A stretch of DNA of 63,910 nucleotides, filler included, from Folioceros fuciformis (lineage: Eukaryota): the NCBI GenBank assembly GCA_049999805.1. It is 5 parts of 5 records of this genome, joined end to end, with 100 filler letters (N's around TTAATTAATTAA, not from the genome) between each part and the next. Parts side by side here need not be neighbours in the genome. Positions count along the whole stretch, not along the records: positions 37,581 to 47,524 come from JBNGIO010004114.1; 4 more parts are not named here. The stretch is one strand, 5' to 3'. Below the pieces are notes generated by a model that was not told the DNA's origin, did no database searches, and saw only the letters and a program-made list of their open reading frames with translations. A program made the position numbers and the translations under genes. Positions 7,630 through 60,270 of the stretch are shown in pieces. Position 1 is the first letter of the stretch. Every line of letters starts with the position of its first letter.

Positions 7630-9489
7630 TCAGCCCTTGCCTCTGTACGACGGCGAGTAGACTGTAAAGGAGTAGAAGGCAGCCGCCGTGCCACAAGTGA
7701 GAAGCAGCATGGTAGCCCAGGAGGTCACGAACACTGCCAACAACGGCCAATTCACATGCTTCCTGCTGTCCGCCAGCCCAACGCCCACGAGCGCTCCGAT
7801 GAGAATGTGGGTGGTGGAGAGGGGGAGCCGAACCTTCAAGGCCAGCACCACGGTAGCCAGTGCAGAAATGTGGGCGCTGAAACCCCTGGCCGGGGAGAGG
7901 TAGACGAGGCGACCACCAACGGAACGGATTATCTTCCACCCCCAGATGGCGAAGCCGACACTAGCCCCGGCCCCGCCCAGTAACAGCAGCCACGGCACCA
8001 GCGACCCTTTGCCGGCTCCGTCTGCAGTGCCGTGGCTGTAGATGCCCACCACCGCCGCATACGGCCCCATTGCCCACGCCAGCTCGTTGGATCCATGAGC
8101 CAAGGCCGCCGCGCTTGCCGTCAGAATCTGCAGGAAGCTGAAGAGCTCTTCCGCCTTGGCGTCGAACTTCTCCGCCAAAGCGTGCCTGACGAGCGTGTGC
8201 CGGTCGTAGGTCAGCCTGCGACTGTAGGTCGCCGTCCGCAGCCGCAGTAGCGACCGCATGAACTTTTCCCTCCCCGTCAAGGGTGGCCTGCGGCGCAGCT
8301 TCTGGAAGCTCAGCAGACGATTCGGGGTGCTGGCCAGGAGCTGGCCGAAGGACAGCTTGGGCTTGTCTAGGACAGCCGGAGGAGGCACGGCAGGGCTGCT
8401 GATGCTCCTGCTCTTGTAGTGAAGACTGAAGTCCGAGCTCTGTTCCTCCTCATCCCCTTCCACCACCGTGGCCAACATTTTCCGCTCCGTGAATTGCTGG
8501 ATAAGCTCATCGGGACTCAGTTCCTGCTCCTTTTTCCCGCCATCCTGCCCCGGCTCCTGATCCTGCTCCTCCTGTTGCTGCTCGAGGTGGGAGTTAGGGT
8601 TTCTAGTGCTCTCCTCCCCGTCCGCGGAGGGCATAGCCAGCCCTCTCCCGGAGGAGGGGGAGGCGGATGCGGAGTTGAAGCATCCCAGCCTTCTCTGCGC
8701 CATGGGCACCACGATGAGGTACGCGAGCAGGCTAGCCAGGCATCCCGACAGGCCCGCGATCAAGGACGCCCGGCGGGGGTCCAAGTCCCTCAAGTGCACC
8801 CTTGGGCAGGCCCGGTAAATGACGAAGTAGATGAGCACGGCGACGGTGACCCCGTAGTAGATGGGCATGGCTCTCAGGCTGCGCTCCACGCAGTGCTGCG
8901 TGCGGAGGACCAGGTGCTTGGTGGCGCCGAAGATGAGGAAGGCGATGGCGGCGGCGATGCAAGGAGCCAGGATCCAGGACAGGACGATGGAGAGCACTCC
9001 TCCCACGCCGAGTGCCGACTGCATCTCCCCCTTATTCTCGGTCCAGTACACGGATTTCACCCCGCTCACGGAGACGAGGATCCCGATCATGGCGCCCCAT
9101 ACGGCCAGGGTGGAGGAGACCGGAAGCTCCCAATGCACGGCAGCGGCCAGCCATGCAGCTGCCACAATGAGACAGATGAAGAGCCCCCACATGAGCAAGG
9201 CATCGTCCTGCCCCGGGGGCCTGTGCCGCATCACTCTGGCCACCAGAGTGTCCCATTCCCGGATGCCCAAGAGGTACGCCCCACTGATCTCCAGCAGGGA
9301 GGCCAGCAGCACCGCCTGCGGCAGGGTGAGCGCGCCCGAGCCCACGGCCGGGGCGAAGGATAGCGGGAAATCCACCGCCCCCACGGCCACGGCCCAGGCC
9401 ACAGCCACGAATCCCCCGACGATGGGGATCCACCTGTAAGTGGAAGTCAAGTGCCCCGCCGCAGCTGCTGCATCTTGAGACAAATCCAT
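7630..9489 (-). CDS. PiT/PHO4 (SLC20) family phosphate transporter, PTB-like, intronless
   Basis: Two inverted hydrophobic PiT halves (PAVGSGALT, LPVSST, SWILAP; HG.N, WGWKIIRSVG, LPLSTTH..GALVGVG) around a long hydrophilic loop. No evident plastid transit peptide from ATG 9489; the frame is open further upstream. Confidence 0.88.
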   Translation of the reverse strand: MDLSQDAAAAAGHLTSTYRWIPIVGGFVAVAWAVAVGAVDFPLSFAPAVGSGALTLPQAVLLASLLEISGAYLLGIREWDTLVARVMRHRPPGQDDALLMWGLFICLIVAAAWLAAAVHWELPVSSTLAVWGAMIGILVSVSGVKSVYWTENKGEMQSALGVGGVLSIVLSWILAPCIAAAIAFLIFGATKHLVLRTQHCVERSLRAMPIYYGVTVAVLIYFVIYRACPRVHLRDLDPRRASLIAGLSGCLASLLAYLIVVPMAQRRLGCFNSASASPSSGRGLAMPSADGEESTRNPNSHLEQQQEEQDQEPGQDGGKKEQELSPDELIQQFTERKMLATVVEGDEEEQSSDFSLHYKSRSISSPAVPPPAVLDKPKLSFGQLLASTPNRLLSFQKLRRRPPLTGREKFMRSLLRLRTATYSRRLTYDRHTLVRHALAEKFDAKAEELFSFLQILTASAAALAHGSNELAWAMGPYAAVVGIYSHGTADGAGKGSLVPWLLLLGGAGASVGFAIWGWKIIRSVGGRLVYLSPARGFSAHISALATVVLALKVRLPLSTTHILIGALVGVGLADSRKHVNWPLLAVFVTSWATMLLLTCGTAAAFYSFTVYSPSYRGKG

Positions 9490-9870
9490 CCGTCTCCGCC
9501 TGCCGCATGTATCCCTGGATCCACTCCTACTACTATTGCTCCTGCCCCGACCCCTGCCTCTGCGGATGGATTCGGTCGCCAATGGAAGCGCCCGTGGGTG
9601 GATGAGCGAAGTGCGAATCGGATGTGTCAGAGAATCCCCGTGCAGGAGCTGGAGACGGAAGTGGTGGGCAAATTGCTTGTCCTCGAGCATCGCCTCAGGG
9701 CGGTCTGGGGCCGGAAGCAATCTTCGCACTCCCGTGCCACATCCTTGTTAGACGAAACGCGCTTTCTACCCGCCCAGTCAAACATCGGCGTGCACAGTGC
9801 GCCACGCTGACCTAATGCAGGCAATCCCATGAAAGCCTAGCCGTTTCCCATGGCCATGTCGGAGTTACCA

Positions 9871-11373: not shown

Positions 11374-12571
11374 CCAAGCAACGAGGACAACTGTGAAATT
11401 GAATGCACAATTGTAAGAGGACATGCATTGATGATTCACACAAAGTAATTGTTGGGTGACAAAGTGGAGGTGAGACACTCACCCAAGGTTCCCTTTTGCT
11501 ACTGCCTGTGTTTTTTACAAGCACATGTCTCCCTTTCTCAACACTTTGTTAAGCAATGAAGGAGGCTATGGATCTTGGTTGATTATTAAGTGTGTTTCTC
11601 GTCACTTACATTTACAAACTTTCTCCTTCAAACAAGAAGAACTACAAGAACTAAGAAACTCAATGTTAGGATGAAATAGGGTAGAGATGACATGGGTTGT
11701 GTATCATGGCATTGCCACTTGATATAATAGTAATTTACATGTCCTACACTTACTCAACATGAACCCTAGAAAGACTAAAGGCATAGCTAAGTAAACCATG
11801 ATTGAAAATGTTTCATTTATTATAAAATAGAAAATGTAATATAAAATGAATTTATATATTAATAAAAAAATTCAGAAGACATCTCACCAAATGGCTGGAT
11901 CTAAGTGAATCAGGAACATCTTTACTANNNNNNNNNNNNNNNNNNNNNNNNNNNNNNNNNNNNNNNNNNNNNNNNNNNNNNNNNNNNNNNNNNNNNNNNN
12001 NNNNNNNNNNNNNNNNNNNNNNNNNNNCTTTTCTTCCCAGCAGCAGCCAGGCAAGAGGCCAGAAGTGGCAGCAGGGCGCCGAGACGGAGTGGGGCGCGAG
12101 ATAACCTTAATATTCTAGTGTCGGCAAGAACCCGACCTAGGTGTAAGGCGCGGACTTGGGAGTTTACTGTTGCTGACCAGTTTTGGACCAAGCTGTCGCC
12201 TCGCCCGCCGCTTAATGGTTCAAAATATGCTCCCTTCAATCTGCTTGAAAAAAGTTGCAGCCAGAGACGGCAGGGCATGGCGAGTCCCTTGCCTTCGTTG
12301 ATGAACTTACCTTTGGGCTTTTCTTTCGAAGTCGTCCCCGGAAGTGTTTCCCCCCTTCATTCGTCGGAACCCTAAGTATGGAATAGTGCGAGATATATCG
12401 TGTTTCGCATCAACAGTCTTGCAGGAGCTCGGGCAGCTTGGGTGTTTGGACTGGCTTTCAGCAGGACGTATTCAGCAGCTGTATATGAGTGCTAGTTGCT
12501 TTGTGTCCAGGCATATTGAGGGCAATTGAGGGCAATTGAGCAATCTTTTGTGTTTTTCTAGTCACCTAGCA

Positions 12572-17504: not shown

Positions 17505-18593
17505 TCATGAGAGTCGTTGGGATATCTCTAAGAGGGTCATACCAGCAAAACCGAGGAAGAGCGCCCCTCCCACATACGCTATCACCCTCTCTGACAGGTA
17601 ACTACTCAAGAAGGAACCGCCGAGAACGGCCAGCAGTGTGGCCACACCATGTCCAACAATAGCACCCGACACCACGCCCAACGGATCTGACGCTGCAGCT
17701 AGAGCAATGGTGGAGAAGAAGGACTTATCCCCCCATTCCGCCACAAAAACTAAAGCAAAAGTGCCCACTATGGTCCCCGCTGCAGCCTGTAAGGCGCCAG
17801 ACGCAAGACCCGAGTCATCCACTCCAGCAATGGCCAGCTCGGCCTCCTGCTGTTCTTCGGCCAGAGCTGAATCCTCCATGGAAGCGGCACTGATGAGAGT
17901 GGTGACCCCGAAGTACACGAGCAGCACAACTGCCGCAAGATCGTCCAGCGGAATCTGCGTCTGCCCGATCCCAAACGGAAGAATCTCATCGACGTAGTGG
18001 AACCCCCGCCCCAACGCGACGGATATGAGCGTCATCGCTGCCAGAGCCCCGAAAGTGCCTACGAAAACCGGCGCACTGGACTTCCGCGCAGACAGGAGCG
18101 CGGCAATGAAGAACGTTTTGTCCCCGATCTCAGAGAAAAAAATGAGCAAAAACGAGGACGCAAATCCACTCTGAAAGTCGGCTCCATCATCCAGCAAGCC
18201 AGCTATTTGCTCCCCGGGCACCGAGTCCGGCCCGGCCCAGGCCGCCCCGCCCGCCAATGCTCCCAGGCCAGCCACACCAAGGGCCATCCATTTTAATCTA
18301 TCAGAGGAGTCGCCACCAACTCCGTCCCTACAACAAGCCGCTTTCTCCTCGCCGTTGGTGCCGCTCGCCCCGTCCAATCCCTGGGCCTGCACCTTCCGTG
18401 CCGCCGCCTTCTGCCACACAACAGAACTCCTTCTTCCTCCGACAGACACGTTCCCTCCGATTCCGCTGCTCTCCCGAATGCATTTGCAAGCCCCGGAGGA
18501 AGGCCGGCGCGAGAGCGCATTCCTGCACTTGCTCGGCAACCGCGACACTGACGTGTGACAAGAGAGCGTGGCCCGCACCACAGTGCTCTCCAT
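17505..18593 (-). CDS. PAM71: GDT1/UPF0016 chloroplast Mn2+/Ca2+ transporter, PAM71-like, intronless
   Basis: Ser/Arg-rich transit peptide; twin motifs FSEIGDKTFF and AEWGDKSFF; TM helices around an acidic loop (EEQQEAE). Confidence 0.88.
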   Translation of the reverse strand: MESTVVRATLSCHTSVSRLPSKCRNALSRRPSSGACKCIRESSGIGGNVSVGGRRSSVVWQKAAARKVQAQGLDGASGTNGEEKAACCRDGVGGDSSDRLKWMALGVAGLGALAGGAAWAGPDSVPGEQIAGLLDDGADFQSGFASSFLLIFFSEIGDKTFFIAALLSARKSSAPVFVGTFGALAAMTLISVALGRGFHYVDEILPFGIGQTQIPLDDLAAVVLLVYFGVTTLISAASMEDSALAEEQQEAELAIAGVDDSGLASGALQAAAGTIVGTFALVFVAEWGDKSFFSTIALAAASDPLGVVSGAIVGHGVATLLAVLGGSFLSSYLSERVIAYVGGALFLGFAGMTLLEISQRLS

Positions 18594-37050: not shown

Positions 37051-39998
37051 CATTGGCAAGGTGTAGAGCAGTTTACATGTGAATGCTTCCTCCTCCCTAG
37101 AGATCTCTAGTGATGCATGTGTTTGCTACACTACATTTTTCCCGTTTTTGTCTAAGCTCTAACTTTAAAAATCATGGTGTGTCACACCAACCCAGAAAAA
37201 GAGATGATTGTGTCCCCATCCATCCACAAACTTCTACACATGAACTGGAATTGTGTCAAGCATGATTGTGTGTTACATAAACGGTGGAGATGTGTCAAAG
37301 ATGACTGTGTGTTATTGGATAGGTGCATGCAAATAGTAATTAATTAATAATTTACTTATCCTAATAAGTATGATTAGTGGTAATTAATAAAATATGTAGT
37401 TAGAATAATTAAAGAATAAAATTTAATGTGAAGTCAACAAAATAGATACAATTGTGGTTGAGCATTCAACAATATATGAGNNNNNNNNNNNNNNNNNNNN
37501 NNNNNNNNNNNNNNNNNNNNNNNNTTAATTAATTAANNNNNNNNNNNNNNNNNNNNNNNNNNNNNNNNNNNNNNNNNNNNTAATTAGCACAAAGAAAAAT
37601 AGGAAAAATGACCAGAAAATCAAGGAAAATTAGGAAAAATAAGTTGAAAAAGAAAACCAAACCATACCACTATTAACCCTTTTTCAACCAAAACAAACTA
37701 CTACCCCAAACTTTGGAGGTTCACACATAGGAGAGAGTTTTGGCCTGTAGAGAAGAAAACAAGTAGTGGAGAAGGTGTGGAAGAATAAAGGAGGAGTAGA
37801 GGTGAAGGTGAAGGTCGTTGTAGTATATAAAGTTGTAAGGCACCGAGAGTGCTCAGGGCTTGGTAAGGAGCCTGAGGATGTGTTTCCTTAAATCCGCCCT
37901 AATTGGTTCGTGTTTTTGACGTGGTGCTGGCAAGATCTGAGGGAGGGGGTTCAAGGATCACTAGAGGAGCCACATGGCAAAGGAGGAGAGGAGGAAGCAA
38001 GGAGGAGAGAAGAAAGAGAGGTCTCACACTCTCACACAATCTCAATTGCAAGGGAGCTCAAGAGGGTATTTATACCCTGTAGAAGAGCTCCCAAGGAAGC
38101 TTCACAAGCAGCGCACAGGAAGTTGCGCAAGAAGCTTCCTACAGATTAGCTTCAGCTATTATAAACAAATGATACTTAACTAGACACTAATCTTAGACTA
38201 AACACAAGAATACCAAGAATATGCTCCTCAAGAAGTGGCAAGATGCTCCTAGACGCCCAAAGGACGAGATCGTCTTCACAAAGCCATGTTGGAAGAAATT
38301 TGCTTTTGGGGTGGATGTGGGTGTATAGATGTAGTCACTTAGGACTAAGTGGCCACTTGAATTGATCATGCTTATAAGGATTACGTATAGGAAATCCTCT
38401 CCAAGGTTTTGTGCTACAGATTACACCCATCTGGGAGCATAGATCTACCCAAAAAATGTGGATCAACCTAAAATATGTGGCCTTGGTGTCTAATTGTTCA
38501 CACGTCACCGTGAGCAACGATCATTCCTATGATTCCTAGCCATTTGATGTGATGGGTGCACAACTTAATGTAGTAATCTAGGCGTGGAGAATAAGAATTT
38601 GGAGGGAGAGGTTGTATGCCTCTCCCAAAATAGGGAAGCCTCATGAAACATTGTCATGATACTTCATATATGGCTTTAGCTCTAATGCAAGACATGCCCA
38701 TGAGATATGAAGCATGATAGCCCGTATTCCATTAGAACTCCATGGTTGAGTTGGTGACTTGCAAAGGTTCCATTTTTTGTTTTTTGTTGTGTTTTTGGAA
38801 TTAAGAACATCCAGCTCTTATTTACTAATAACTCCATGGTTAAGCACACTTGGGTTGGATCAAAACCTGAATGGGTGACCTACAAAGGTGTTTTTTGGAA
38901 TTCAAAATATCCAAATATGAACTAGAGATGCATAGAGAAGGTTTGCATATCCAATTAAAGCTATTTGATAATAGTTTATATTAGAGGCAATATTCTACTA
39001 AGCATGTTGTTGGCAACAACAATCGTATGATTAGTTTGATCAAGGGATTTGTTGTTATGGAAGCCATGGTTCTACATGACCTTGATACCAAATTAGAATT
39101 GCTAATGTAGAGATAGATGCACCAAAGATGATCTATTAACAATTGAATAGGTGGGTACATTGGTAGGCCTTAAATAGCAGTTATTGAAGGAGTGTGTTCT
39201 TTACCTAGCTTGTCATTTAACTAACTGCAATTATATCTAAGTCTGGTTAGACTAACCAAAGTGATACACAACGATATGGTCTGCCTTATATTCTAACTTG
39301 TTCGAGGACGCATTGCTCACCAGTTGTGAATGGTTGACCACGCATGGAGGGAGGGAACAAGCTCCAAGCTTTAGTGTCTTTTGGCAAAAGCCCCTAGAGA
39401 AGGGAGGAGAGAGGCTCCAACACATCAAATGGCAGGATGCAATGTATGGAAACAACAATGACAGGAAATAGAGGGGAGTACATGGGTCCCGCAGGGAGGA
39501 GTGCAGAGTCCAAGGACACCAGGGCAAGGCAACTCTTACAAGGGCAAGGCAACTCTTACAAGGGAAATTGGTGAGACAACGACGGAATGATAGGAGTCTC
39601 TAGGAAAACCTTTTTATAGCCTATGGTCCCATTTTGGGGCTGGATTTTCCTATTTCAAAATTATTTTCGCCGTCCAGGTGAATCAAAACTCGCCCATTCT
39701 TTTGAGAGGAAGTCCCTTGTGGTCCCGCTTTGGTATGCCATATTGGCCACTTCTTGGTGTCTTATTAGGAAAATAGTGCCACTCCTATTCCAACTGGAGG
39801 GTTTTCCTTCCTCGCGCAAAAGGGGGTCTGTCAAGCGTAAACGATGAAGCAAAGATGGGGCCGCGGGGATTTTCCTCTTCTAATAACAATGTTATCCCGA
39901 AGAAAATGGCCCCGACGACGTTGTGAGATTAAACCAAAACCCGACGTTGTTTATATCCATTTTCCTCCGCAGAACAGTGTGCTTGTATTCAGCAAAGT

Positions 39999-42203
39999 AT
40001 GGTGCCCCTGAGACTTGCTGCACCGCACTCAGCAATCTCGGATGCGCGTATAGTGGGGATAGAGGAACGAGGGGCGTGGAGGTCAGATACTCGTGTGTCA
40101 GGCTCAGCCAAGCCTAAGTACGCTTTTGGCAGTTTGGCTCTATGCAAGGAAGAGCTTGTTGCCAAAGAGCGGCAGGAGGTTCTATGGCAACATTTCTTCT
40201 CGCATCCATGGCAGTGGTGGGACAACAGGGCGGATAAGAGGAGCGGGCGTCATCCCGATTTCAGGCACAAAACTTCAAAGGAGCCCCTGTGGCTGGACAA
40301 CTGTCACAGGCCAGGTTGGGTGGACTGGCAGCTAGCGAGGTGGGATGCTACCGCTGCATACCCGTACCCACAAGAGTCCATGCTCCAGAGCTTGAGCAGA
40401 AGTTGTAGGGACGGGAAGCTGATGGACGCTGTCCAATCCCTGGATCTGTTGGTGCAGCGCGCATGCCCTATCAGTTGTTATCTCTTCTACCGTGTGCTGA
40501 AGCTCTGCATTGAACAGAGGGATTTAGCTCTTGGCAGGCGTGTGCATGCTCTTGCCCAGAAGAGCGGATACGGGTCAAATGCCTTCTTGGCCAATCACAT
40601 CATCGCCATGTATTGTTCTCACGGCCTATTGGAGGACGCAGCCGAGGTCTTCACCACCGTAATAGCTCCGAACGCGCACATGTGGGCCACCATTATGTTT
40701 GGGTATGTCCGCCACGGCGAGCCCGTGGCTGCTATCAGGCTTTACCAGTGGATGCGGAATTCAAGCGTGAAGCCAGACAATCGTGTATTTGTAGCAGTCC
40801 TCAAGGCTTGCGCTGCAGCAACCGATTTAACTGCAGGCGAGGAAGTGCATGCTGATATTGTGGCCTGTGACTTACGGGTTGATATCTTCATCGGCAGCAG
40901 CCTGGTGAACATGTATGCAAAATGCGGGAGCGTGGAGGCTGCTCGTTCTGTTTTCGATGGTCTGGACAGACGAGATGCAGTGACGTGGAACGCCATGATG
41001 GTGGGATATGTGCAGCAGGGGCTTGGTCGAGAAGCTTTGGCCCTGTATGGGATTATGCAACAGGAGCCCATCCCTCCTGAAGACCGTGTTACATTTGTGT
41101 GCCTCCTTCAAGCATGTGCCAGCATGGGAGCACTGCAGCAAGGGACGCAAGTACATGCCCAGATTCGGAAAAGGGGCTTGGAAGCAGATTTGTCGATTGG
41201 CAGCGGTTTGGTGGACATGTACGCCAAGTGCGGCAGGTTGAAGGATGCTCGCAAAGTTTTTGATGGGCTGCCCTTTCCCGCGAAAACTGTTGTGACATGG
41301 ACTGCGCTGCTCAACGGCTACGCTGAACATGGGGTTGGTGAAATGGCAGTTCAGTGCTTTGAAGAGATGCGGAAGCAAGGTGTGGAGCCGGATGGAGGCA
41401 GTTTTGTAAGTGTTCTGGTGGCCTGCAGTCATGCAGGCCTAGTGCAGGAGGGCCTCCAATATTTCAGGATGATGGTAGAGGAGTACGGCATTGTGGCACT
41501 TGACTACCACCATAATTGCATGATCGATCTTCTTGGGCGGGCAGGTTGGCTGGATGAGGCCGAAGGTATACTTCAGACTGCGGCATTCGACAGTTACGTT
41601 GTGGGGTTGAAGGCTTTGCTGAGTGCGTGCAAAAACCACGGTGACGCGGAGCGCGGGAAACGATGTTTTGAGCGTCTGGTAGCCCTTGACCCTCAGAATG
41701 CACCTGCCTACGTGCTCTTGGGTGGCCTTTACGCCAGTGCGGGAAGGTGGGAAGATGCGGAGGAGATAGAGAGGCTGAGAAAGAGAGCAGGTGCATGGAA
41801 GAAACCTGCGAAGGCTTGCATTGAAGTGAGGCAGCAGGTGCACGAGTTCACCGTAGGGGAACACAGAGAGGAGATTTCGTCTAAGCTTAGGAGCATGAGC
41901 ACGAGGTTGAAGGAGGAGGGGGGTCACTTGCCACAAACAGATCTTGTGCTTTGGCCCGTGTCTGAGCAGGCGAAGGAGGATGCACTGTGTGGGCATGCGG
42001 AGAAACTTGCCCTGGCCTATGGTCTTCTCAACACGCCCTATGGCACACCTTTGGTGGTCACAAAAAATCTTCGTATGTGCAATGACTGCCACAGCAGTAC
42101 GAAGATCATGTCCCGTCTTGAGCAGCGGGAGATTATAGTCCGGGATGTCAACCGAGTGCACACTTTTATGGATGGCAATTGCTCATGTCGTGATCGGCAC
42201 TGA
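39999..42203 (+). CDS. PLS-class PPR protein with E domains and a DYW:KP (DRH-type) deaminase-like domain; N-terminal OSB-type PDF motif; intronless
   Basis: P-L-S repeats (LVNMYAKCGS, VTWNAMM.GY, TFVCLLQACA), E region, KKPAKACIEV, HAEKLA, KNLRMCNDCH, C-terminal CSCRDRH. Confidence 0.95.
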   Translation: MVPLRLAAPHSAISDARIVGIEERGAWRSDTRVSGSAKPKYAFGSLALCKEELVAKERQEVLWQHFFSHPWQWWDNRADKRSGRHPDFRHKTSKEPLWLDNCHRPGWVDWQLARWDATAAYPYPQESMLQSLSRSCRDGKLMDAVQSLDLLVQRACPISCYLFYRVLKLCIEQRDLALGRRVHALAQKSGYGSNAFLANHIIAMYCSHGLLEDAAEVFTTVIAPNAHMWATIMFGYVRHGEPVAAIRLYQWMRNSSVKPDNRVFVAVLKACAAATDLTAGEEVHADIVACDLRVDIFIGSSLVNMYAKCGSVEAARSVFDGLDRRDAVTWNAMMVGYVQQGLGREALALYGIMQQEPIPPEDRVTFVCLLQACASMGALQQGTQVHAQIRKRGLEADLSIGSGLVDMYAKCGRLKDARKVFDGLPFPAKTVVTWTALLNGYAEHGVGEMAVQCFEEMRKQGVEPDGGSFVSVLVACSHAGLVQEGLQYFRMMVEEYGIVALDYHHNCMIDLLGRAGWLDEAEGILQTAAFDSYVVGLKALLSACKNHGDAERGKRCFERLVALDPQNAPAYVLLGGLYASAGRWEDAEEIERLRKRAGAWKKPAKACIEVRQQVHEFTVGEHREEISSKLRSMSTRLKEEGGHLPQTDLVLWPVSEQAKEDALCGHAEKLALAYGLLNTPYGTPLVVTKNLRMCNDCHSSTKIMSRLEQREIIVRDVNRVHTFMDGNCSCRDRH

Positions 42204-42774
42204 CGCAGACAGCTAAAGTTAATCACCATTATGTGTCACACTTAGTTAAGCGAAGTGGAAGCGGCCGGGAAACACCTGGGGGTGTTCTGGGTACTGCGTG
42301 CGTGCGGTAGGTGAACGAAAATGGTCTGCAATCCAGGACTACCTGCAGCTGTAGGGCACATCTCGCGGGGGACTCCCCACCCGATGCAGGTATACTTATA
42401 CAGTGCAGCGAAAGAAGCTTACTCCCGTATATGGATGTGCACCATGGCGTCTTCTGTATGGCACAGTGTCCATGCCTGTGCAGCGAAGCCGCTCTTTGGC
42501 GCAGGCAGACGTGGTAGCAGCAACAGCAGCATTGCCCGTTGTTCCTTCCTGAACTTTCCATGCCGAAGGCTGGCCGGTGCCCGAGCGCCTAGAATATCGC
42601 CACAGCCTTTGGCCACTCATGATGATCTACGTGTTCAGGTGAAAGGGGGGCGTGTTCTCAGCCCGTCGATACCCCAGCTCTTCTTCCACCGATATCACGC
42701 TTCTCGTCCTCACCACATTTCTTTGCTAAGTGCAGGTAATTCACGCCCTGCCGTCTCATTTCACGGACTCTCAG

Positions 42775-43513
42775 ACGGAAGCGTTGGATTTGGACATTGG
42801 TGTGGAGACGGTATGTTGGTTAAAACCCCTTTGGTCGTTCCGCATGTATCTGCCGCAAAACTGAGGTCATCTTACAGGACCCCGGTGGGAAGCAGATCTT
42901 TCAGGTTATCGCTTCTGGCGCGGACGCCGTATTCGACCATCTCCCTGTCACCACCCCCACCATCCTAGTAGGGCTGGTTTCGACCTATTATCTGGTTAAT
43001 CTCATTCTACGAAGTATTTTCTGCAACTATTTTATGGTGGCCCCTTCTGTCCACCTAGGCGAGATTACAGCCGAAGGGCTCCGAGCCTACGATGGGACTG
43101 ATTCCTCGAAGCCTTTACTTGTGGCCATCAAGGGCCACATATATGACGTGTCCCACTCGCGGTATGAGCCCCTCCCTTTCTCGCCTTTCTTCCATCAATG
43201 ACATGAAGTGCAGGGGTGAAAGCCTGCCATTGCTCACAACTTGGATGGATTTGCATTCAGGATCCTCTATGGCCCTCGAGGTCCCTATTCCCTGTTTGCG
43301 GGCAGCGAAGCCAGTCGGGCTCTGGCCAAACACTCTTTCGAACAGCACGACCTCACTGATGATCTTCAAGGGCTCACGCCTGACGAGATGGATACCTTGT
43401 CCGACTGGGAGTTAAAGTTCCGCAATAAGTATCCGAGAGTCGGCTTCATCGCGGGTTCCATGGCAGCATTCAGCATGGAAGGAGACGGCGTGCCGGGAGG
43501 CATGGACGGATAG
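42775..43513 (+). CDS. Membrane steroid-binding protein (MAPR/MSBP, cytochrome b5-like); exons 42878-43160 and 43261-43513, probable 36-nt exon 42775-42810; start unresolved
   Basis: TM segment ILVGLVSTYYLVNLIL, then LGEITAEGLRAYDGTD..KPLLVAIKG.IYDVS.SR..YGP.GPY.LFAG..ASRALAK.SF..W..KF..KYP.VG. Confidence 0.85.
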
Positions 43514-44390
43514 TTTAGTACAATGGGCGGTTTGAACGATGTACATAATTTTGAATCGTTATGTAGGGCGGACAGTTTTTATTGATTTCAGTAACAGACT
43601 TGTCCACCCGAAGTGCACAAGTACGTTTTTAGGTCATGAGTGTCCTCAAGGGTTGCGCAACGCTAGTAGCCCACGTAAATTGCTGCATTCACAATGTAGC
43701 AATCGTCGCTGCTGTCACCCATGGTTGCAAGAGCAACGCCGCTAGAGCAGATGAGACCACCGTCCACAACCTCCACATCCAGAACCTCTCCACTGCCAAG
43801 ATCCAGCGCATCGATCAAAACTTGCTCGCGCTTAGCTGAAATGCACGGTAAACTAGAACGGAACTCAGCTTACTACGGGAAAATCGATTTCACTTTCTGG
43901 ATGTCCAAGGAACGAATGGTGGACTGCGGCACGCCGAGCTTTACTTTCAGTTTCATCTGCTGATAGCTCACGCCCGGCAGTGCTCCTGAGAACAAAGAGG
44001 TCCGGAGGAGTCATGGCTAGCAGCATGAGGACAAACTGGGACCGTGTGATTCAACAACTCACATACCCGTACGAAACGCAGGGATGGAGTTGGAGCTGAT
44101 GGCATTCTTGCAAGCACGCATAGCTGCCGCTGTAATGTCTTGCCTGCCAAAACAATGTACTCTTCGTCGTGAACAAGGCGCTCCGTTTCCACCCCAAGCG
44201 GAGACTCCAAACTTTCTTACCCATGCTGATCGTATCCCGTGCCCATCTCTACAAACAGCAGCTTGAACGGGCAGTAGGGTGCACGAACTGATGTTTCCGG
44301 AGACGGGCAACTTGCTTCAGCCATACGATCCAGCCGCCGATGTTCCAAGTCGAGGTGAGCACAGGAGTGTTATAGCTACCCACTTAGCAC

Positions 44391-45527: not shown

Positions 45528-46029
45528 ACTTAGCACACCCTCGTGATACTGGAAATGATGCAGGAAACGGGGCTCCCCAGTGACTGAAGTGTCAGGAGTG
45601 GGAGTGGCGGCGAGGAGCGGGAGGTTAACGGGGGCTGCAAGGCCGTGCAGGCCNNNNNNNNNNNNNNNNNNNNNNNNNNNNNNNNNNNNNNNNNNNNNNN
45701 NNNNNNNNNNNNNNNNNNNNNNNNNNNNNNNNNNNNNNNNNNNNNNNNNNNNNCCCCCCCCCCCCCCCCCCCGCGGCTAGCAAGCGCTCGGCAGCCTTGT
45801 AGGGCATGTTCAGGCGTGGTAGCGGGCCTAGGTTGGGGGCTAGGTTTGGTAGACCTTGGGGCTTTGTCGTATTTCAATCTGCAGCCTTCTGGTCCATGTG
45901 GAGTTGGGTTTGGTGGATTTTTCATCTTTTTGTTATTTTTTTTATGTTATGGTTTCTTTTGAGATTTGAAATTTCTGATTGGCTTGGAAATTTTCGGAGA
46001 GCTTTGGTTCCATAGTATTTCTTCGTTTT

Positions 46030-50159: not shown

Positions 50160-52075
50160 TTCCTCTACATAGTGTCACCTTCTTGGAACCACATGCATCT
50201 ATGGGAGAGCCAATACCTTCAAAGGGAGTAACTCTAGCTCTAGAGGGAGTGACTGTAGCTTAAGAGGAGGTAGAAGACTCAGTAGATCCGGATGAGCCAA
50301 ATCCAGCACTTGACCCTCCTATGGACTATCCCCAAGATGACTTTGGCCCTATTGATGATGCTCCACCACTACTTGATGATGCTCTACCAGCACTTGACCA
50401 TTTGAGCCAGAACAACCAGATGTGTTAGTACAAGATTTTGTGGAGCATAATGCATTTTCAGAACATGAACAGTTCATTTTTTATCAAGTTGATTACCAGC
50501 ATGAAGATCTGTTTGATGAAAATGCCTTCCAGGATGCTCTTGCACGTGAGGAGGATGTGCCAGATGTCGCTGAGCCACCTATACAAGAGCCTCGACACTC
50601 CACACGAATGAGTCTAGCTAGGTCAGAGTGGGTAGAACCACCATATCAATCAATTGATTTCAAGCATTCCACTTCAGCACCAACAGTCATCTTACCAGAT
50701 GAGCCCAAAACTCTATCACAAGCATTCAATGGTCCAAAAGCTGCACAATGGTGTGTGGCAGTTGAAGATGAATATCAGTTGTTGATCAAAAACAAAACCT
50801 GCACTCTTGTTGACCTGCAACATGGTAGGAAGCCCATTTTTTTTTCGCCAAGAGGAAAGCCCATTTCAAGTAAGTGGGTACTTAAATTAAAGCTGAAGCC
50901 AAGGGTGAGGTTGCTAGATTCAAAACTAGACTTGTGGCGAAAAGGTTTCACTCAAGTCGAGGGACTCGACTACCAAGAAACTTTCTCACCTATTGTGAGG
51001 GCTCAGTCCATTCGGATCATCCTTGCACTTGCCACAGAGTACAACTTAGACCTCTAGCAGGTGGACATGTGCACGGCCTTCTTGTATGGAGACTTGGACG
51101 AGGATCTATATATGCAGCAACCTGAGGCATACATTGATCAGAAGCACCCACACAAGGTGTTGAAACTCCTAAAATGGATAGATGGTTTAAAGCAGTCTGG
51201 GAGGGTATGGTACATTACGATTCACATCTACCTTCTTAGCATCAACTTTGTACAGAGCACAACTGACACAAACGTGTATCGGCTTACCAAAGGGGTAGAG
51301 TACGTGGTCCTGGCATTGTATGTAGACGACGTGATTCTAGCCACCAACAGCCAGCCATTGTTGTTAGAAGTGAAAGTCCTGCTAAGCAAAAAGTTTGAAA
51401 TGAAGGACATAGGAGCCCTCAGATTCTACTTAGGGATCCAGATCATTCGTGACAGACCTGAGAAGCTTATGGTTATACACCAGCTCAAATACATTAACGA
51501 AATACTGTGAAGGTTCAAGTTAGAGGACTGCCAACCTGCTACAACACCAGTAGCAGTAGGAGTTAAGCTCACAAGTCTAATGTGCCCTTAGACTGCCCAG
51601 GAGAAACAAGATATGGAAGGAGTTCCTTACAAGCACGCTGTGGGAAGCCTTATCTTCATGGCAAATTGGACGAGACCTGATGTACAATACACTATAAGCA
51701 CAGTCTCTCAATTCCTGGAAAATCCAGGGAGGGCACATTGGATTTCTAATAAAACGGATATTTAGGTACCTCAAGGGCACCATGTATCATGGGCTGGTAT
51801 ACAAAAGCAACAGGCAAGATAGACTTATCTTGTCAGGCTTTACGGACGCTGATTGGGCATCAAACTCAGACTCCCGCAAAAGCCTATCCACGTATTGTTT
51901 CTTGTTAGCCTCTGCAGCTGTTAATTGGACCAGCAAAAAGCAAACATTTATATCACTCTCCTCCACTAAGGCAGAGTATAAGTCACTCATAGAAGCTATG
52001 AAGGAAGCAAAATGGGGAAGGAGATTTCTACATGACCTAGGGCAGAAGCAAGAGGAACCAACCTTGATTTTGTGT
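50160..52075 (+). mobile_element. Ty1/Copia pol remnant (RT and start of RNase H)
   Basis: EPKTLSQAF, KGFTQVEGLDYQETFSP, D..TAFLYGDL, GLKQSGRVW, LYVDDV, GFTDADWA..RKS, W.SKKQ, ST.AEY; multiple stops and frameshifts. Confidence 0.95.
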
Positions 52076-52591
52076 ATTTCAAGAGGTCTTGCTCCTCAAC
52101 ATCTGAACTCTACCCTAGACATCTCTGAACACTCATATATATATTATATATATAGCATGCATTCATGTGTATATGGGGTGGCCAGCCCCTATATGATATA
52201 CGCGTATATTCTTGTCAACAGTGCACTTGGATGCCTCCCCTTGGATGCTTCCTCTCCGTCGTGCACACCAAGGCTACTGGTCATCCTGCCACTCTTTGGT
52301 GGTTTACTACACACGAGATCGACAAAAGGAGTAGCTTATCTCTACTCCTCCTCCCTCGATGTGAGTACAGTGATCACACTCATANNNNNNNNNNATCTCT
52401 ACTCCTCCTCCCTCGATGTGAGTACAGTGATCACACTCATAATTATTGGATGCCTCCCCTTGGATGCTTCCTCTCCGTCGTGCACACCAAGGCTACTGGT
52501 CATCTTGCCACTCTTTGGTGGTTTGCTACACATGAAATCGATGAAAGGAATAGCTATCCTCTACTCCTTCTCCCTCGCTGCAACACCTTCA
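52073..52591 (-). mobile_element. Putative 3' LTR of the Gypsy element, with an internal tandem duplication
   Basis: Minus-strand PPT AAGGGGGGGAG (52602-52592) is followed by TG; the segment ends ...ATACA at 52073; 52227-52355 is repeated at about 52446-52575. Confidence 0.6.
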
Positions 52592-52682
52592 CTCCCCCCC
52601 TTAATCTGCTGACCATCTCTCATTGGTAAGCCATATTAACAAACTTTTCATCAACATACATACACGCTGAACATACTACCCT

Positions 52683-58619: not shown

Positions 58620-60270
58620 ATGTCAAACCCATCATTTACATCAGACTTGAAAGAGAAAGATTGGTTTAACGGTACTAAGTACCCTATGTGGAGAGTGCGT
58701 ATCAAGGCCATCCTCATAGCACAAGGTGTCTGGAGTGTGGTCAGTGGTTCATTTGCAGAACGTGATCCAGCCACAGGCAATCAAGCTAATAAGGATAGGT
58801 GGGGAGCACATAACCAAGTTGCTGTAGCAGTCTTGTTCAATGGACTCGACTCCATACTTGTCCCTGACATAGAGTATCTCACAAAGGCCATAGAGATATG
58901 GAACCAATTAGAAAAGACCTATTAGGTCACAAATATAATGCAACAATGCACTGTTAGGCAAGAATATTATACGTTAAGAATGAAAGAGGGAGATAAAGTG
59001 GGTCCTTACTGTACTGAGTTCCGCCACTTACGTGCTCAACTCGCTTCATTGAAGTACAAGATTGTTGGGGAACATGTTGTGCAGCTGCTGAGCAGCTTGC
59101 CTACATCCCTCCAGCAATTTGTTAGTTTGTATAATAGGCCTTTGTGTATAGCATAGGCTGCTATAGCCGCCGGGAACGCAAACACCCTCACAATTGAAGA
59201 TGTCATCGTGGCTGCCTTGCATTCGGAGTAGCACAGTTGCCTGTTTTCTGTCGGAAGCTCTAAGCCAAAGGCAGATAAAGTATTAATGGCCAAGTTTAAA
59301 CCTAACAGGTGGAAGGACAAGCCTGACCAAGCAAACGAAGGTGATTCCGGATCATCCAGCTCAACTCCAAAGAAGACAGTCAACTGCAATTGGTGTGGTA
59401 AACTCGGTCACTGGGCCAGAGACTGCTGTAAAAAGAAGGCAAGGGAACCCCTGAAGAAGGCATCCACCAGTGTTGCTGTTAAGGACAAGAGCTCAAACGA
59501 CTCTTCCTCATTTGCAGAGAGCGTCAAAGGAATAGTCAGAATCTACACATTATGTCTCTCAAACTCCTTCCATGATAGCGACAGTTGGTACTTGGATTCA
59601 GGTGCAACTACCCACAGATGCAAGGAAAAGGAATTGTTCTTGTACCTGGACACCTCACATATCCATGATAAGGTGTTGATGGGTGACGAGAAGAGTGAGA
59701 CAGGCCTTCAAATTGAAGGACGTGGTAAATGCATTTTCGGATTACATGATAAGGTTGACCTGGTACTAGAAGATGTCTTGTATGTCCCACGAATGGCAAA
59801 GAACCTCGTGTCCTTGAGCAGGCTAATGAGTCTGAAACTGTACAGCATGTTTGCAGACAGAACTTCCTGCTCTTTCCACACTATCTCTATCCCGCACAAT
59901 CTAGTATTCAAAGGCATTCTTGACTGTGATCTGTATCGTTTGGACATCTATTGTAGGTCTCAACCCGCAGCTCTATCAATAGGCACAGGTCAGCTGGATT
60001 CAAAAGTGTTAGCTTCCCTTTGGCATGCTAGGCTTGGTCATGCCAACAGGGGAAAGCTCATTGACATGGTTACAAAGGACTGTTATCAAGAACCCCTACC
60101 TAGATGCTTCAAGGACCTTCCGATTTGTGAAACCTACATACTTGCTAAGCCAGAAGGAATAGCCATTTTCAAGCACACCTGCACATAGGGCCAATCATAT
60201 GTTAGAACTAATACATGCTGACATCTCTAGGAAAATTCACAAGCCATCATTTGGAGGTTCTCGGTATTTG
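58620..60270 (+). mobile_element. Ty1/Copia gag, protease and start of integrase (degenerate, truncated)
   Basis: FNGTKYPMWR..KAIL...GVW, LRMKEG, LLSSLP, zinc knuckle CNWCGKLGHWARDC, WYLDSGATTH, DVLYVP...NLVS, LWHARLGH, LELIHADI. Confidence 0.95.

Follow-up and report, generated by a model that had tools for sequence, protein, structure and literature searches.

The question raised by this locus of Folioceros fuciformis is whether a gene for a protein with a DYW:KP domain encodes a working catalyst of U-to-C RNA editing, a reaction for which functional data come only from consensus-designed KP proteins, which stay crosslinked to RNA. KP domains are confined to lineages with U-to-C editing, namely hornworts, some lycophytes and ferns, and are the proposed catalysts (PMC11845758, PMC9478123), in agreement with what the first-pass annotation had said of the class. 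They are recognised by their N-terminus, where Lys-Pro stands instead of Pro-Gly (PMC11845758). Further marks of the class are Ala or Cys where Ser would follow the His of HxE, a last triplet that is not DYW, and a domain length of 132-133 residues. Most KP domains lack the xHP residues, and in hornworts the class falls into two subgroups, DRH and GRP (PMC9478123).

Within the window, the whole stretch of 63,910 nucleotides that was analysed, ORF scanning and translation revealed at positions 39999-42203 of the + strand a single uninterrupted ORF of 734 codons, closed by a TGA stop at 42201-42203. When its product (P0001) was used as a tblastn query, this locus was the sole match in the whole window. 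Pfam detected PPR (E 1.6e-43), E_motif (PF20431, E 9.5e-12, residues 547-608) and DYW_deaminase (PF14432, E 2.9e-33, residues 642-732, profile positions 1-91 of 93), and E-values of this order show that these features of the protein are not due to chance. Pfam together with hand segmentation gave the layout of a PLS editing factor, in which a P/L/S array is followed by P2-L2-S2, E1, E2 and DYW:

39999..42203, + strand: intronless gene for a PLS-class PPR protein (P0001) that carries E1, E2 and DYW:KP (ORF, translation, Pfam)
40215..40292, + strand: conserved motif WWDNR-x-K...PDFRHK...LW, residues 73-98, before the PPR array (regular expression)
40371..41597, + strand: twelve PPR motifs, residues 125-533, three P1-L1-S1 triplets and then P2-L2-S2 (hand segmentation, Pfam PPR)
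41598..41801, + strand: E1 (residues 534-567) and E2 (residues 568-601), PPR-like motifs (Pfam E_motif; boundaries by hand)
41802..42200, + strand: DYW:KP domain, 133 residues (602-734), numbered 1-133 after PMC11845758 (translation, alignment)

We conclude that the locus is an intact nuclear, intronless plant gene for a PLS-class PPR protein ending in a DYW:KP domain.

The PPR array is preceded by 124 N-terminal residues. A regular expression for the conserved motif within them matched 17 of 264 proteins, P0001 among them and both PG and KP kinds represented. The motif gave no Pfam family at E-values up to 10 and no usable Atlas match, and a word-sharing search returned no shorter homologue with common words. 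It resembles the OSB 'PDF motif', a likeness that we take to reflect, at most, a putative homology. The latter motif is described as a stretch of about 50 residues in which Pro, Asp and Phe are conserved (PMC6963530). The twelve PPR motifs, each of 31-36 residues, were segmented by hand on the numbered sequence, their boundaries being set with consensus motif lengths and the array as such being backed by Pfam PPR. Segmented in this way, they have as fifth and last residues L/S, Y/N, N/N, A/D, V/D and S/D (motifs 1-6) and N/D, V/D, S/T, T/D, V/L and N/Y (motifs 7-12); the last residues of S1-3 (T) and of S2 (Y) are non-canonical. If the PPR code holds for this tract, the target would presumably read roughly Y-N-N-G-U-N-R-G-N-Y-N-N-N-U, with the edited U last. 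Such a code carries only about 11 bits, which is too little for naming an RNA site.

A DYW:KP domain with a DRH terminus had been annotated at 41796..42203, and translation places its named features exactly there. Codon W600 begins at position 41796, and the C-terminal translation runs ...GAW-KKPAKACIEV-RQQVHEFTVGEHREEI...CGHAEK...RMCNDCH...CSCRDRH, followed by the stop, so that the replacement of the PG box by KKPAKACIEV, the HAEK...CNDCH zinc site and the DRH end are all as described. The numbering of PMC11845758, when applied to the domain, yields C6, T17, G64, K88, V113, V119 and H133, which are the consensus residues named in that paper. The positions of interest are as follows:

41802..41819, + strand: K1-P2-A3-K4-A5-C6 (the K602-P603 start), replacing the PG box x-P-G-x-S-W (alignment)
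41856..41867, + strand: G-E-H-R, where four residues of PG domains (the xSHP segment) are deleted (alignments)
41994..42002, + strand: H65-A66-E67 (codons cat gcg gag), zinc-binding His and glutamate of the catalytic site, flanking an alanine typical of KP domains
42063..42065, + strand: Lys88 (codon aaa)
42075..42092, + strand: M92, then C93-N-D-C96-H97, the zinc-binding CxxC and a histidine (codons)
42192..42200, + strand: C-terminal triplet D-R-H in place of D-Y-W (gat cgg cac tga, with the stop)

These positions were compared with 30 rows of KP domains that carry the deletion (group A), 16 rows of a DRH/GRP cluster and 171 rows of PG domains, the groups having been drawn up after a first tree had been seen and consisting mostly of unnamed relatives, as opposed to a published KP/PG reference set. 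Position 3 is A in 14 of the 16 cluster rows and 28 of the 30 group A rows, and G in 163 of the 171 PG rows; position 6 is C in 12/16 cluster rows and W in 100/171 PG rows. The absence of D.SHP, also noted in the first pass, proved to be a real deletion of four residues: in an alignment of 232 DYW domains, the interval holds five residues in P0001 and nine in 135 of 140 PG-class rows, and the HMMER alignment of P0001 to PDB chain 9kfx shows the same 4-residue gap. Position 66 is A throughout group A (30/30) and S in all but one of the PG rows (170/171). Likewise, M occupies position 92 in every group A row (30/30) and V in 120 of the 171 PG rows; PG V95 is given as the counterpart of KP M92 in the discussion of PMC9478123. 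The last residue is H in 11/16 cluster rows and W in 163/171 PG rows. Lys88 is also present in 167 of the 171 PG rows, and is thus necessary but no diagnostic of the class.

H65, E67, C93, C96, H97, H120, C127 and C129 are all present in P0001, and each is conserved in at least 29 of the 30 group A rows. P0001 has both zinc sites, the catalytic Glu and Lys88 in intact form. At all tabulated positions P0001 has the majority residue of the DRH/GRP cluster, except that it differs from these relatives at D47 and V116, where the majority residues are E and A; V116 is unusual, being found in 1 of the 16 cluster rows. The domain is predicted to fold with a mean pLDDT of 95.1, and the top PDB matches of the predicted fold are DYW domains, the best being 9kfx_A (TMq 0.90, rmsd 1.8, E 1.4e-19). 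The DYW:PG C-to-U factors of known structure (OTP86 DYW domain, 7o4e/7o4f; DYW1, 7w86; a synthetic PPR-DYW, 9kfx) share the fold and the zinc deaminase core with P0001 (fold E-values of 1.8e-11 for 7o4f_A and 1.9e-10 for 7w86; sequence E-values of 1e-40 to 1e-29). They differ from it in that P0001 has a replaced PG box, no xSHP, A for S at position 66, M for V at 92, V for F at 119, and DRH for DYW at its end.

Profiles trained on random halves of the comparison groups scored the domain of P0001 at 230.9 bits (KP with deletion), 177.1 bits (other KP) and 169.3 bits (PG), and assigned all held-out rows to their own profile (group A, 15/15; PG, 86/86). Its identity is 64-77% to the 16 DRH/GRP-cluster domains and 41-54% to the 171 PG domains. 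In the DYW phylogeny, which the first-pass annotation had proposed as a check, the trees are weakly resolved. P0001 fell into a KP cluster of 32 rows (SH-aLRT 92), separate from an xYW cluster of 71 rows (93), and in a quick tree of 65 rows, 22 PG rows stood without P0001 on one side of a starred branch (95); across trees, the KP-cluster branches that include P0001 had SH-aLRT values of 88-93, none of them starred. However, when P0001 was constrained to join the 22 PG rows, the resulting tree was not rejected by an AU test on the 65-row set (142 columns; p-AU 0.514), and its log-likelihood was higher by 1.35 units. An alignment of 142 columns cannot fix the junction of the PG branch, and since the tree by itself proves little, it is not our main argument for the KP class. 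The cluster of P0001 includes P0124, which EukProt assigns to the hornwort Nothoceros aenigmaticus, and the fern-type KP rows form a separate subcluster (P0084, Pteridium). With its DRH/GRP relatives and this one named member, the cluster points to a seedless land plant, most likely a hornwort, as the source of the gene. Taken together, the diagnostic residues, the domain length with its indel, the profile scores and the clustering support, at the level of sequence, the assignment of P0001 to the DRH subgroup of DYW:KP, as annotated at the outset.

P0001 resembles the hornwort DRH-subgroup KP proteins (Gerke et al. 2020, as cited in PMC9478123), the template of the designer protein KP1, in its KP-A-K-A-C start, its 133 residues without xSHP, HAE, M92, K88, the retention of D131 and K101, and the DRH end. 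In contrast, GRP proteins replace D131 and often K101 (PMC9478123), both of which P0001 keeps. The homologue comparison returned no near-identical protein, the best full-length identity being 58%. The DYW:KP class and its DRH subgroup have already been published, and P0001 is a typical, ordinary further member.

Three of seven designer KP proteins edit U to C, KP2 and KP3 of the GRP type and KP6 of the fern type (PMC9478123). They share the class, HAE, CxxC and Lys88 with P0001, but are consensus proteins whose artificial PLS tract targets Arabidopsis rpoA, whereas P0001 is natural and has its own tract of 12 motifs. Their HAA and AxxA mutants lose U-to-C activity (PMC9478123), and so do mutants of K88, which is essential for U-to-C editing (PMC11845758). 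It seems probable, at about 0.65, that P0001 is an organelle-imported, site-specific U-to-C editing factor of the DRH-type DYW:KP class. The protein would be imported into the plastid or the mitochondrion, where its PPR tract would bind one or a few transcripts with the last S2 motif four nucleotides upstream of a uridine, and the KP domain would convert that uridine to cytidine. By analogy with the model put forward for designer proteins (PMC11332814, PMC11845758), the zinc/Glu site would activate C4 of the uridine, Lys88 would then attack C4 to form a protein-RNA Schiff base, and resolution of this intermediate would leave cytidine. With this model in print, the earlier remark that the chemistry is poorly understood is partly outdated. 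The same annotation had spoken of an intact U-to-C factor. The gene is intact and, as described below, apparently transcribed, but the function assigned to it goes beyond the evidence: according to PMC11845758, activity has yet to be demonstrated for any KP protein found in nature, and KP1, the design based mainly on DRH sequences, is outside the three of seven active in E. coli (PMC9478123), so that U-to-C activity of P0001 can only be inferred.

P0001 may instead be, though this is rather unlikely, a deaminase that edits specific sites from C to U, or an enzyme active in both directions, its KP-type sequence notwithstanding. Its HxE/CxxC deaminase core is intact, designer KP6 edits C-to-U as well as U-to-C (PMC11845758), and in vitro the recombinant form of KP6 edited C to U only (PMC11332814). 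Moreover, P0001 carries G64, V113 and H133, and the changes E64G, L113V and F133H turned KP6 into an enzyme with C-to-U activity only (PMC11845758). These three residues, however, are merely the consensus of natural KP domains, and P0001 also has C6, T17 and V119, which moved KP6 towards U-to-C (PMC11845758). It also has Lys88, the residue whose replacement switched designer proteins to C-to-U, and the restriction of KP domains to U-to-C-editing lineages likewise argues against a C-to-U enzyme (PMC11845758).

A similarly low likelihood attaches to the idea that DRH-type proteins are not autonomous, P0001 being an RNA binder that depends on a partner or on some plant-specific cofactor, or else a specificity or stabilising factor only. 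That DRH-based KP1 is not among the active designs while GRP-based KP2 and KP3 are would fit this idea, as would the finding that synthetic KP enzymes stay crosslinked to RNA whereas the edited RNA of a fern is not crosslinked, which implies an extra step in planta (PMC11332814). Conversely, the conservation of catalytic and zinc residues across the cluster argues for retained catalysis and, with four of the seven designs having failed, one failed consensus design is weak evidence. With a similarly low likelihood, the mode of action of DRH-type KP domains may differ from that of the GRP and fern types, in that a plant-specific factor or nitrogen donor would be required for completing the reaction or for release of the Lys88-RNA intermediate.

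Contigs of run X1 tile the gene and its flanks without a difference:

39982..42635, + strand: stretch tiled by four X1 contigs with 0 other letters

The four contigs cover 39982-40918, 40902-41120, 41092-42089 and 42083-42635. The last of them continues downstream, spliced, into neighbouring genes, skipping three GT..AG and three CT..AC intervals; joined in this way across six canonical introns, it indicates that the run behaves as cDNA, and X1 was taken as cDNA from this spliced contig, the RNA label of the run being only a guess. Stretches without contig cover, such as 38254-39915, carry no evidential weight. Since exact, partly spliced contigs tile the whole ORF, the DYW:KP gene is very probably transcribed. 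In a second organism (X2), contigs are 93-95% identical across 40093-42198. Among the differences of the X2 copy, the 13 that were listed all lie in the N-terminal region, at first (5), second (2) and third (6) codon positions; this is too small a number for dN/dS, and none of the 13 falls in the DYW domain.

That the ORF is a silent or decaying, functionless paralogue of a very large PPR family is highly improbable, for although hornworts have over 1400 PPR proteins (review, PMC10030945) and 351 X1 and 417 X2 contigs are at least 90% alike to the 8.3-kb stretch, the 734 codons hold no stop or frameshift, every catalytic residue is intact, the exact contigs come from a run with spliced sequences, and the X2 copy is closely similar; the first three of these points led us to reject the pseudogene reading. 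The gene of P0001 is natural, intact and apparently transcribed, belongs to the DRH type and has a short PPR tract, which makes it a reasonable candidate for heterologous expression or knock-out. Its value is that of a test object and not of a discovery, as it is one ordinary member of a large, described family. If DRH types do work differently, a short, intact and expressed gene with a conserved copy in X2 would be a practical entry point, from which the first natural U-to-C factor might be characterised and the missing step in planta worked out.

Contig joints within the ORF (for example 40931>41288 and 41230>41420) were considered as introns and rejected: their ends are non-canonical, their short sides measure 21-39 letters, and the contigs are only 90-95% alike. 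We read them as cross-placement of paralogous PPR repeats. Contigs of at least 90% likeness lie deepest over the PPR repeats, at 40747-41577.

Translation of positions 39999-42203 (+ strand) gave one ORF of 734 codons, closed by TGA. Pfam detected PPR repeats in its product (E 1.6e-43), an E motif at residues 547-608 (E 9.5e-12) and DYW_deaminase, PF14432, at residues 642-732 (E 2.9e-33). When the protein was searched against the whole window with tblastn, only its own locus was matched and no second copy was found. Motif borders were segmented by hand on the numbered sequence, guided by the consensus lengths of PPR motifs:

residues 1-124, N-terminal region
residues 125-533, PPR tract of twelve motifs (three P1-L1-S1 triplets followed by P2-L2-S2)
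residues 534-567, E1
residues 568-601, E2
residues 602-734, DYW domain of 133 residues

Numbering of the domain from K602 yielded C6, T17, G64, K88, V113, V119 and H133. These are the consensus residues of natural KP domains reported in section 4 of PMC11845758, and this match fixed the register of the domain. The domain starts with K1-P2-A3-K4-A5-C6 and also carries H65-A66-E67, K88, M92, C93-N-D-C96-H97, H120, C127-x-C129 and D131-R-H133. The first-pass annotation had placed a DYW:KP domain with a DRH terminus at 41796-42203; this interval runs from W600 to the stop, and its translation contains all the motifs quoted. DYW:KP domains are defined by KP where other domains have PG, by a C-terminal triplet that varies and by an HxE motif whose middle residue is Ala or Cys (PMC11845758, section 3); most have 133 residues and lack xHP, and M92 is the counterpart of V95 in PG domains (PMC9478123, sections 6 and 12). 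The query domain showed every KP feature listed in these sections. The assignment to DYW:KP with a DRH terminus is supported by the diagnostic residues, the deletion and the profile scores.

For comparison, we assembled 264 proteins, the query plus 263 from whole-protein and DYW-region searches of 1.84 billion representatives. Of 8000 candidates scored in the whole-protein search, 2080 had E <= 0.001, and the best 120 were used; the DYW-region search gave 2901 matches with E <= 0.001 (309 with E <= 1e-30), of which the best 150 were used. The query DYW region was matched by 248 of the 264 proteins; 232 with near-full coverage were aligned, and the other 32 were left out. Over 133 columns, the query was 64-77% identical to the 16 rows of the DRH/GRP cluster, as against 41-54% for the 171 PG rows. 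An interval with five residues in the query had nine in 135 of the 140 strict-PG rows. Except for D47 and V116, the query agreed with the majority residues of its cluster at the tabulated positions.

Residues of the DYW domain by group (group A, KP rows with the deletion)
Position 3: A in 14/16 DRH/GRP-cluster rows; G in 163/171 PG-type rows
Position 6: C in 12/16 DRH/GRP-cluster rows; W in 100/171 PG-type rows
Position 47: E in 9/16 DRH/GRP-cluster rows; D in the query
Position 66: A in 30/30 group A rows; S in 170/171 PG-type rows
Position 92: M in 30/30 group A rows; V in 120/171 PG-type rows
Position 116: A in 15/16 DRH/GRP-cluster rows; V in the query
Position 119: V in 14/16 DRH/GRP-cluster rows; F in 151/171 PG-type rows
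Position 133: H in 11/16 DRH/GRP-cluster rows; W in 163/171 PG-type rows

Rows of group A (30, query left out), group B (other KP-like, 30) and PG (171) were also halved at random, and HMMs built from one half were used to score the other. Scores of the query were 230.9 bits with the A model, 177.1 with B and 169.3 with PG. The groups had been drawn with the first tree already seen, which makes this a consistency test rather than a blind one. Each of the 15 held-out A rows had its top score on A (A minus PG, +26.8 to +74.0), as did all 86 held-out PG rows on PG (-83.8 to -32.9) and 14 of 15 held-out B rows on B.

A quick maximum-likelihood tree was built from 132 rows (all 40 'KP', all 52 'mixed' and a random 40 of 140 'PG'; 142 columns). 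The query fell within a 32-row cluster (SH-aLRT 92) and, inside it, among 18 rows ending in DRH or GRP (SH-aLRT 93); none of the branches holding the query had starred support in this tree. A separate cluster of 71 rows (SH-aLRT 93) had the termini DYW (50), DFW (9), EYW (4), DHW (2) and six singletons. In a 65-row quick tree (31 rows of group A, with 22 drawn at random from the PG cluster and 12 from the remainder), a starred branch (95) set the 22 PG rows apart, with the query outside. The DYW-domain phylogeny proposed in the first-pass annotation placed the query in KP clusters, but an AU test on the 65 rows did not reject its grouping with the 22 PG rows (p-AU 0.514), and the tree so constrained lay 1.35 log-likelihood units above the free one. 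Our reading is that the long PG branch can join the KP cluster at nearly any of its short inner branches. In view of the AU test, membership is not established by the tree alone.

An AlphaFold2 model of residues 568-734, from a 26-row alignment, had a mean pLDDT of 95.1 and a pTM of 0.86. Its best PDB matches were DYW domains, 9kfx_A (E 1.4e-19, TMq 0.90, rmsd 1.8 over 168 columns), 7o4f_A (E 1.8e-11) and 7w86 (E 1.9e-10), followed more distantly by cytidine deaminases.

Two hornwort KP subgroups, DRH and GRP, are named from the last three residues (PMC9478123, section 6), and both termini fill the query's cluster. Ten relatives were checked for a source name and two had one: the hornwort Nothoceros aenigmaticus for P0124, a transcript product that clusters with the query, and the fern Pteridium aquilinum for P0084, which falls in an adjoining subcluster. 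Together, these observations make a hornwort origin of the gene likely. The best 120 of 2080 matches included no near-identical protein (best full-length identity, 58%); the best DYW-domain identity among the matches listed was 77%. The papers cited here already describe the KP class and its DRH subgroup, together with the residues that mark them and a proposed mechanism, and the gene is thus a further member of a published class. Hornwort PPR proteins number over 1400, as stated in a passage of a review (PMC10030945).

Binding and editing geometry would be as in established PLS-DYW editing factors. The PPR code, applied to the fifth and last residues of the query motifs, gave a degenerate target motif of about 11 bits. 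By analogy with designer proteins, the query KP domain would itself be catalytic. HAA and AxxA mutants of designer KP proteins lost U-to-C editing (PMC9478123, section 7), and Lys88 substitutions abolished it and turned the proteins into C-to-U editors (PMC11845758, section 4). In the model outlined in PMC11332814, a lysine attacks uridine C4 to form a Schiff base, hydrolysis of which would free cytidine in planta. Against a U-to-C reading, PMC11845758 (section 3) reports no established activity for natural KP proteins, the DRH-based design KP1 was not among the active ones (PMC9478123), and the design KP6 has dual activity (PMC11332814).

Upstream of the PPR array lies a further conserved element:

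40215-40292, + strand, box WWDNR-x-K...PDF(R/K)HK...LW, residues 73-98

A regular expression for this box matched 17 of the 264 proteins, query included (PG type 9, KP type 3, others 5), among them named lycophyte, liverwort and moss proteins. It resembles the 'PDF motif' of OSB proteins, ssDNA-binding proteins of plant organelles; searches for a Pfam family, an Atlas match or a shorter homologue gave nothing.

X1, a public sequencing run, contained 0.84 of the sampled words. Four of its contigs tiled 39982-42635 with zero differences from the window, and the last lacked six intervals of the downstream genes, three bounded by GT..AG and three by CT..AC. X1 thus includes spliced sequence, as expected of cDNA, although its record does not label it as RNA. 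The exact contigs had no joint inside the ORF, and the gene is thus intronless there. In X2, a run from another organism, four contigs across 40093-42198 differed at 55/836, 39/741, 35/474 and 8/131 letters; this identity of about 93-95% points to a conserved copy. An X1 contig of 1757 letters (42083-44220) begins within the 3' end of the PPR ORF and defines introns in two genes:

42635>42733, 42809>42895, 43160>43260, + strand, GT..AG introns of the gene after the PPR ORF
43792>43874, 43984>44066, 44142>44220, - strand, CT..AC introns of a gene further on

Either the transcripts are tightly packed or overlapping, or the assembly merged neighbouring transcripts.

The neighbours of the PPR gene in the window are ordinary plant nuclear genes, including a fucose pyrophosphorylase fragment, and pieces of copia-like retroelements:

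3-2504, + strand, long LRR receptor-like kinase, apparently single-exon, running off the window start
7630-9729, - strand, PHO4-family phosphate transporter, 699 aa, apparently single-exon
17505-18593, - strand, GDT1-family cation antiporter, 362 aa, apparently single-exon
50422-52612 and 59286-60188, + strand, copia-type fragments (RVT_2; Pol beta-barrel, GAG-pre-integrase), broken by N runs

The kinase, PHO4 and GDT1 ORFs indicate a gene-dense plant nuclear region. None of the 13 N runs in the window touches the PPR gene. The runs are of 10, 44 or 100 bases (for example 11928-12027, 37481-37580 and 45654-45753), and several are paired, 12 bases apart, as masked or gap stretches.
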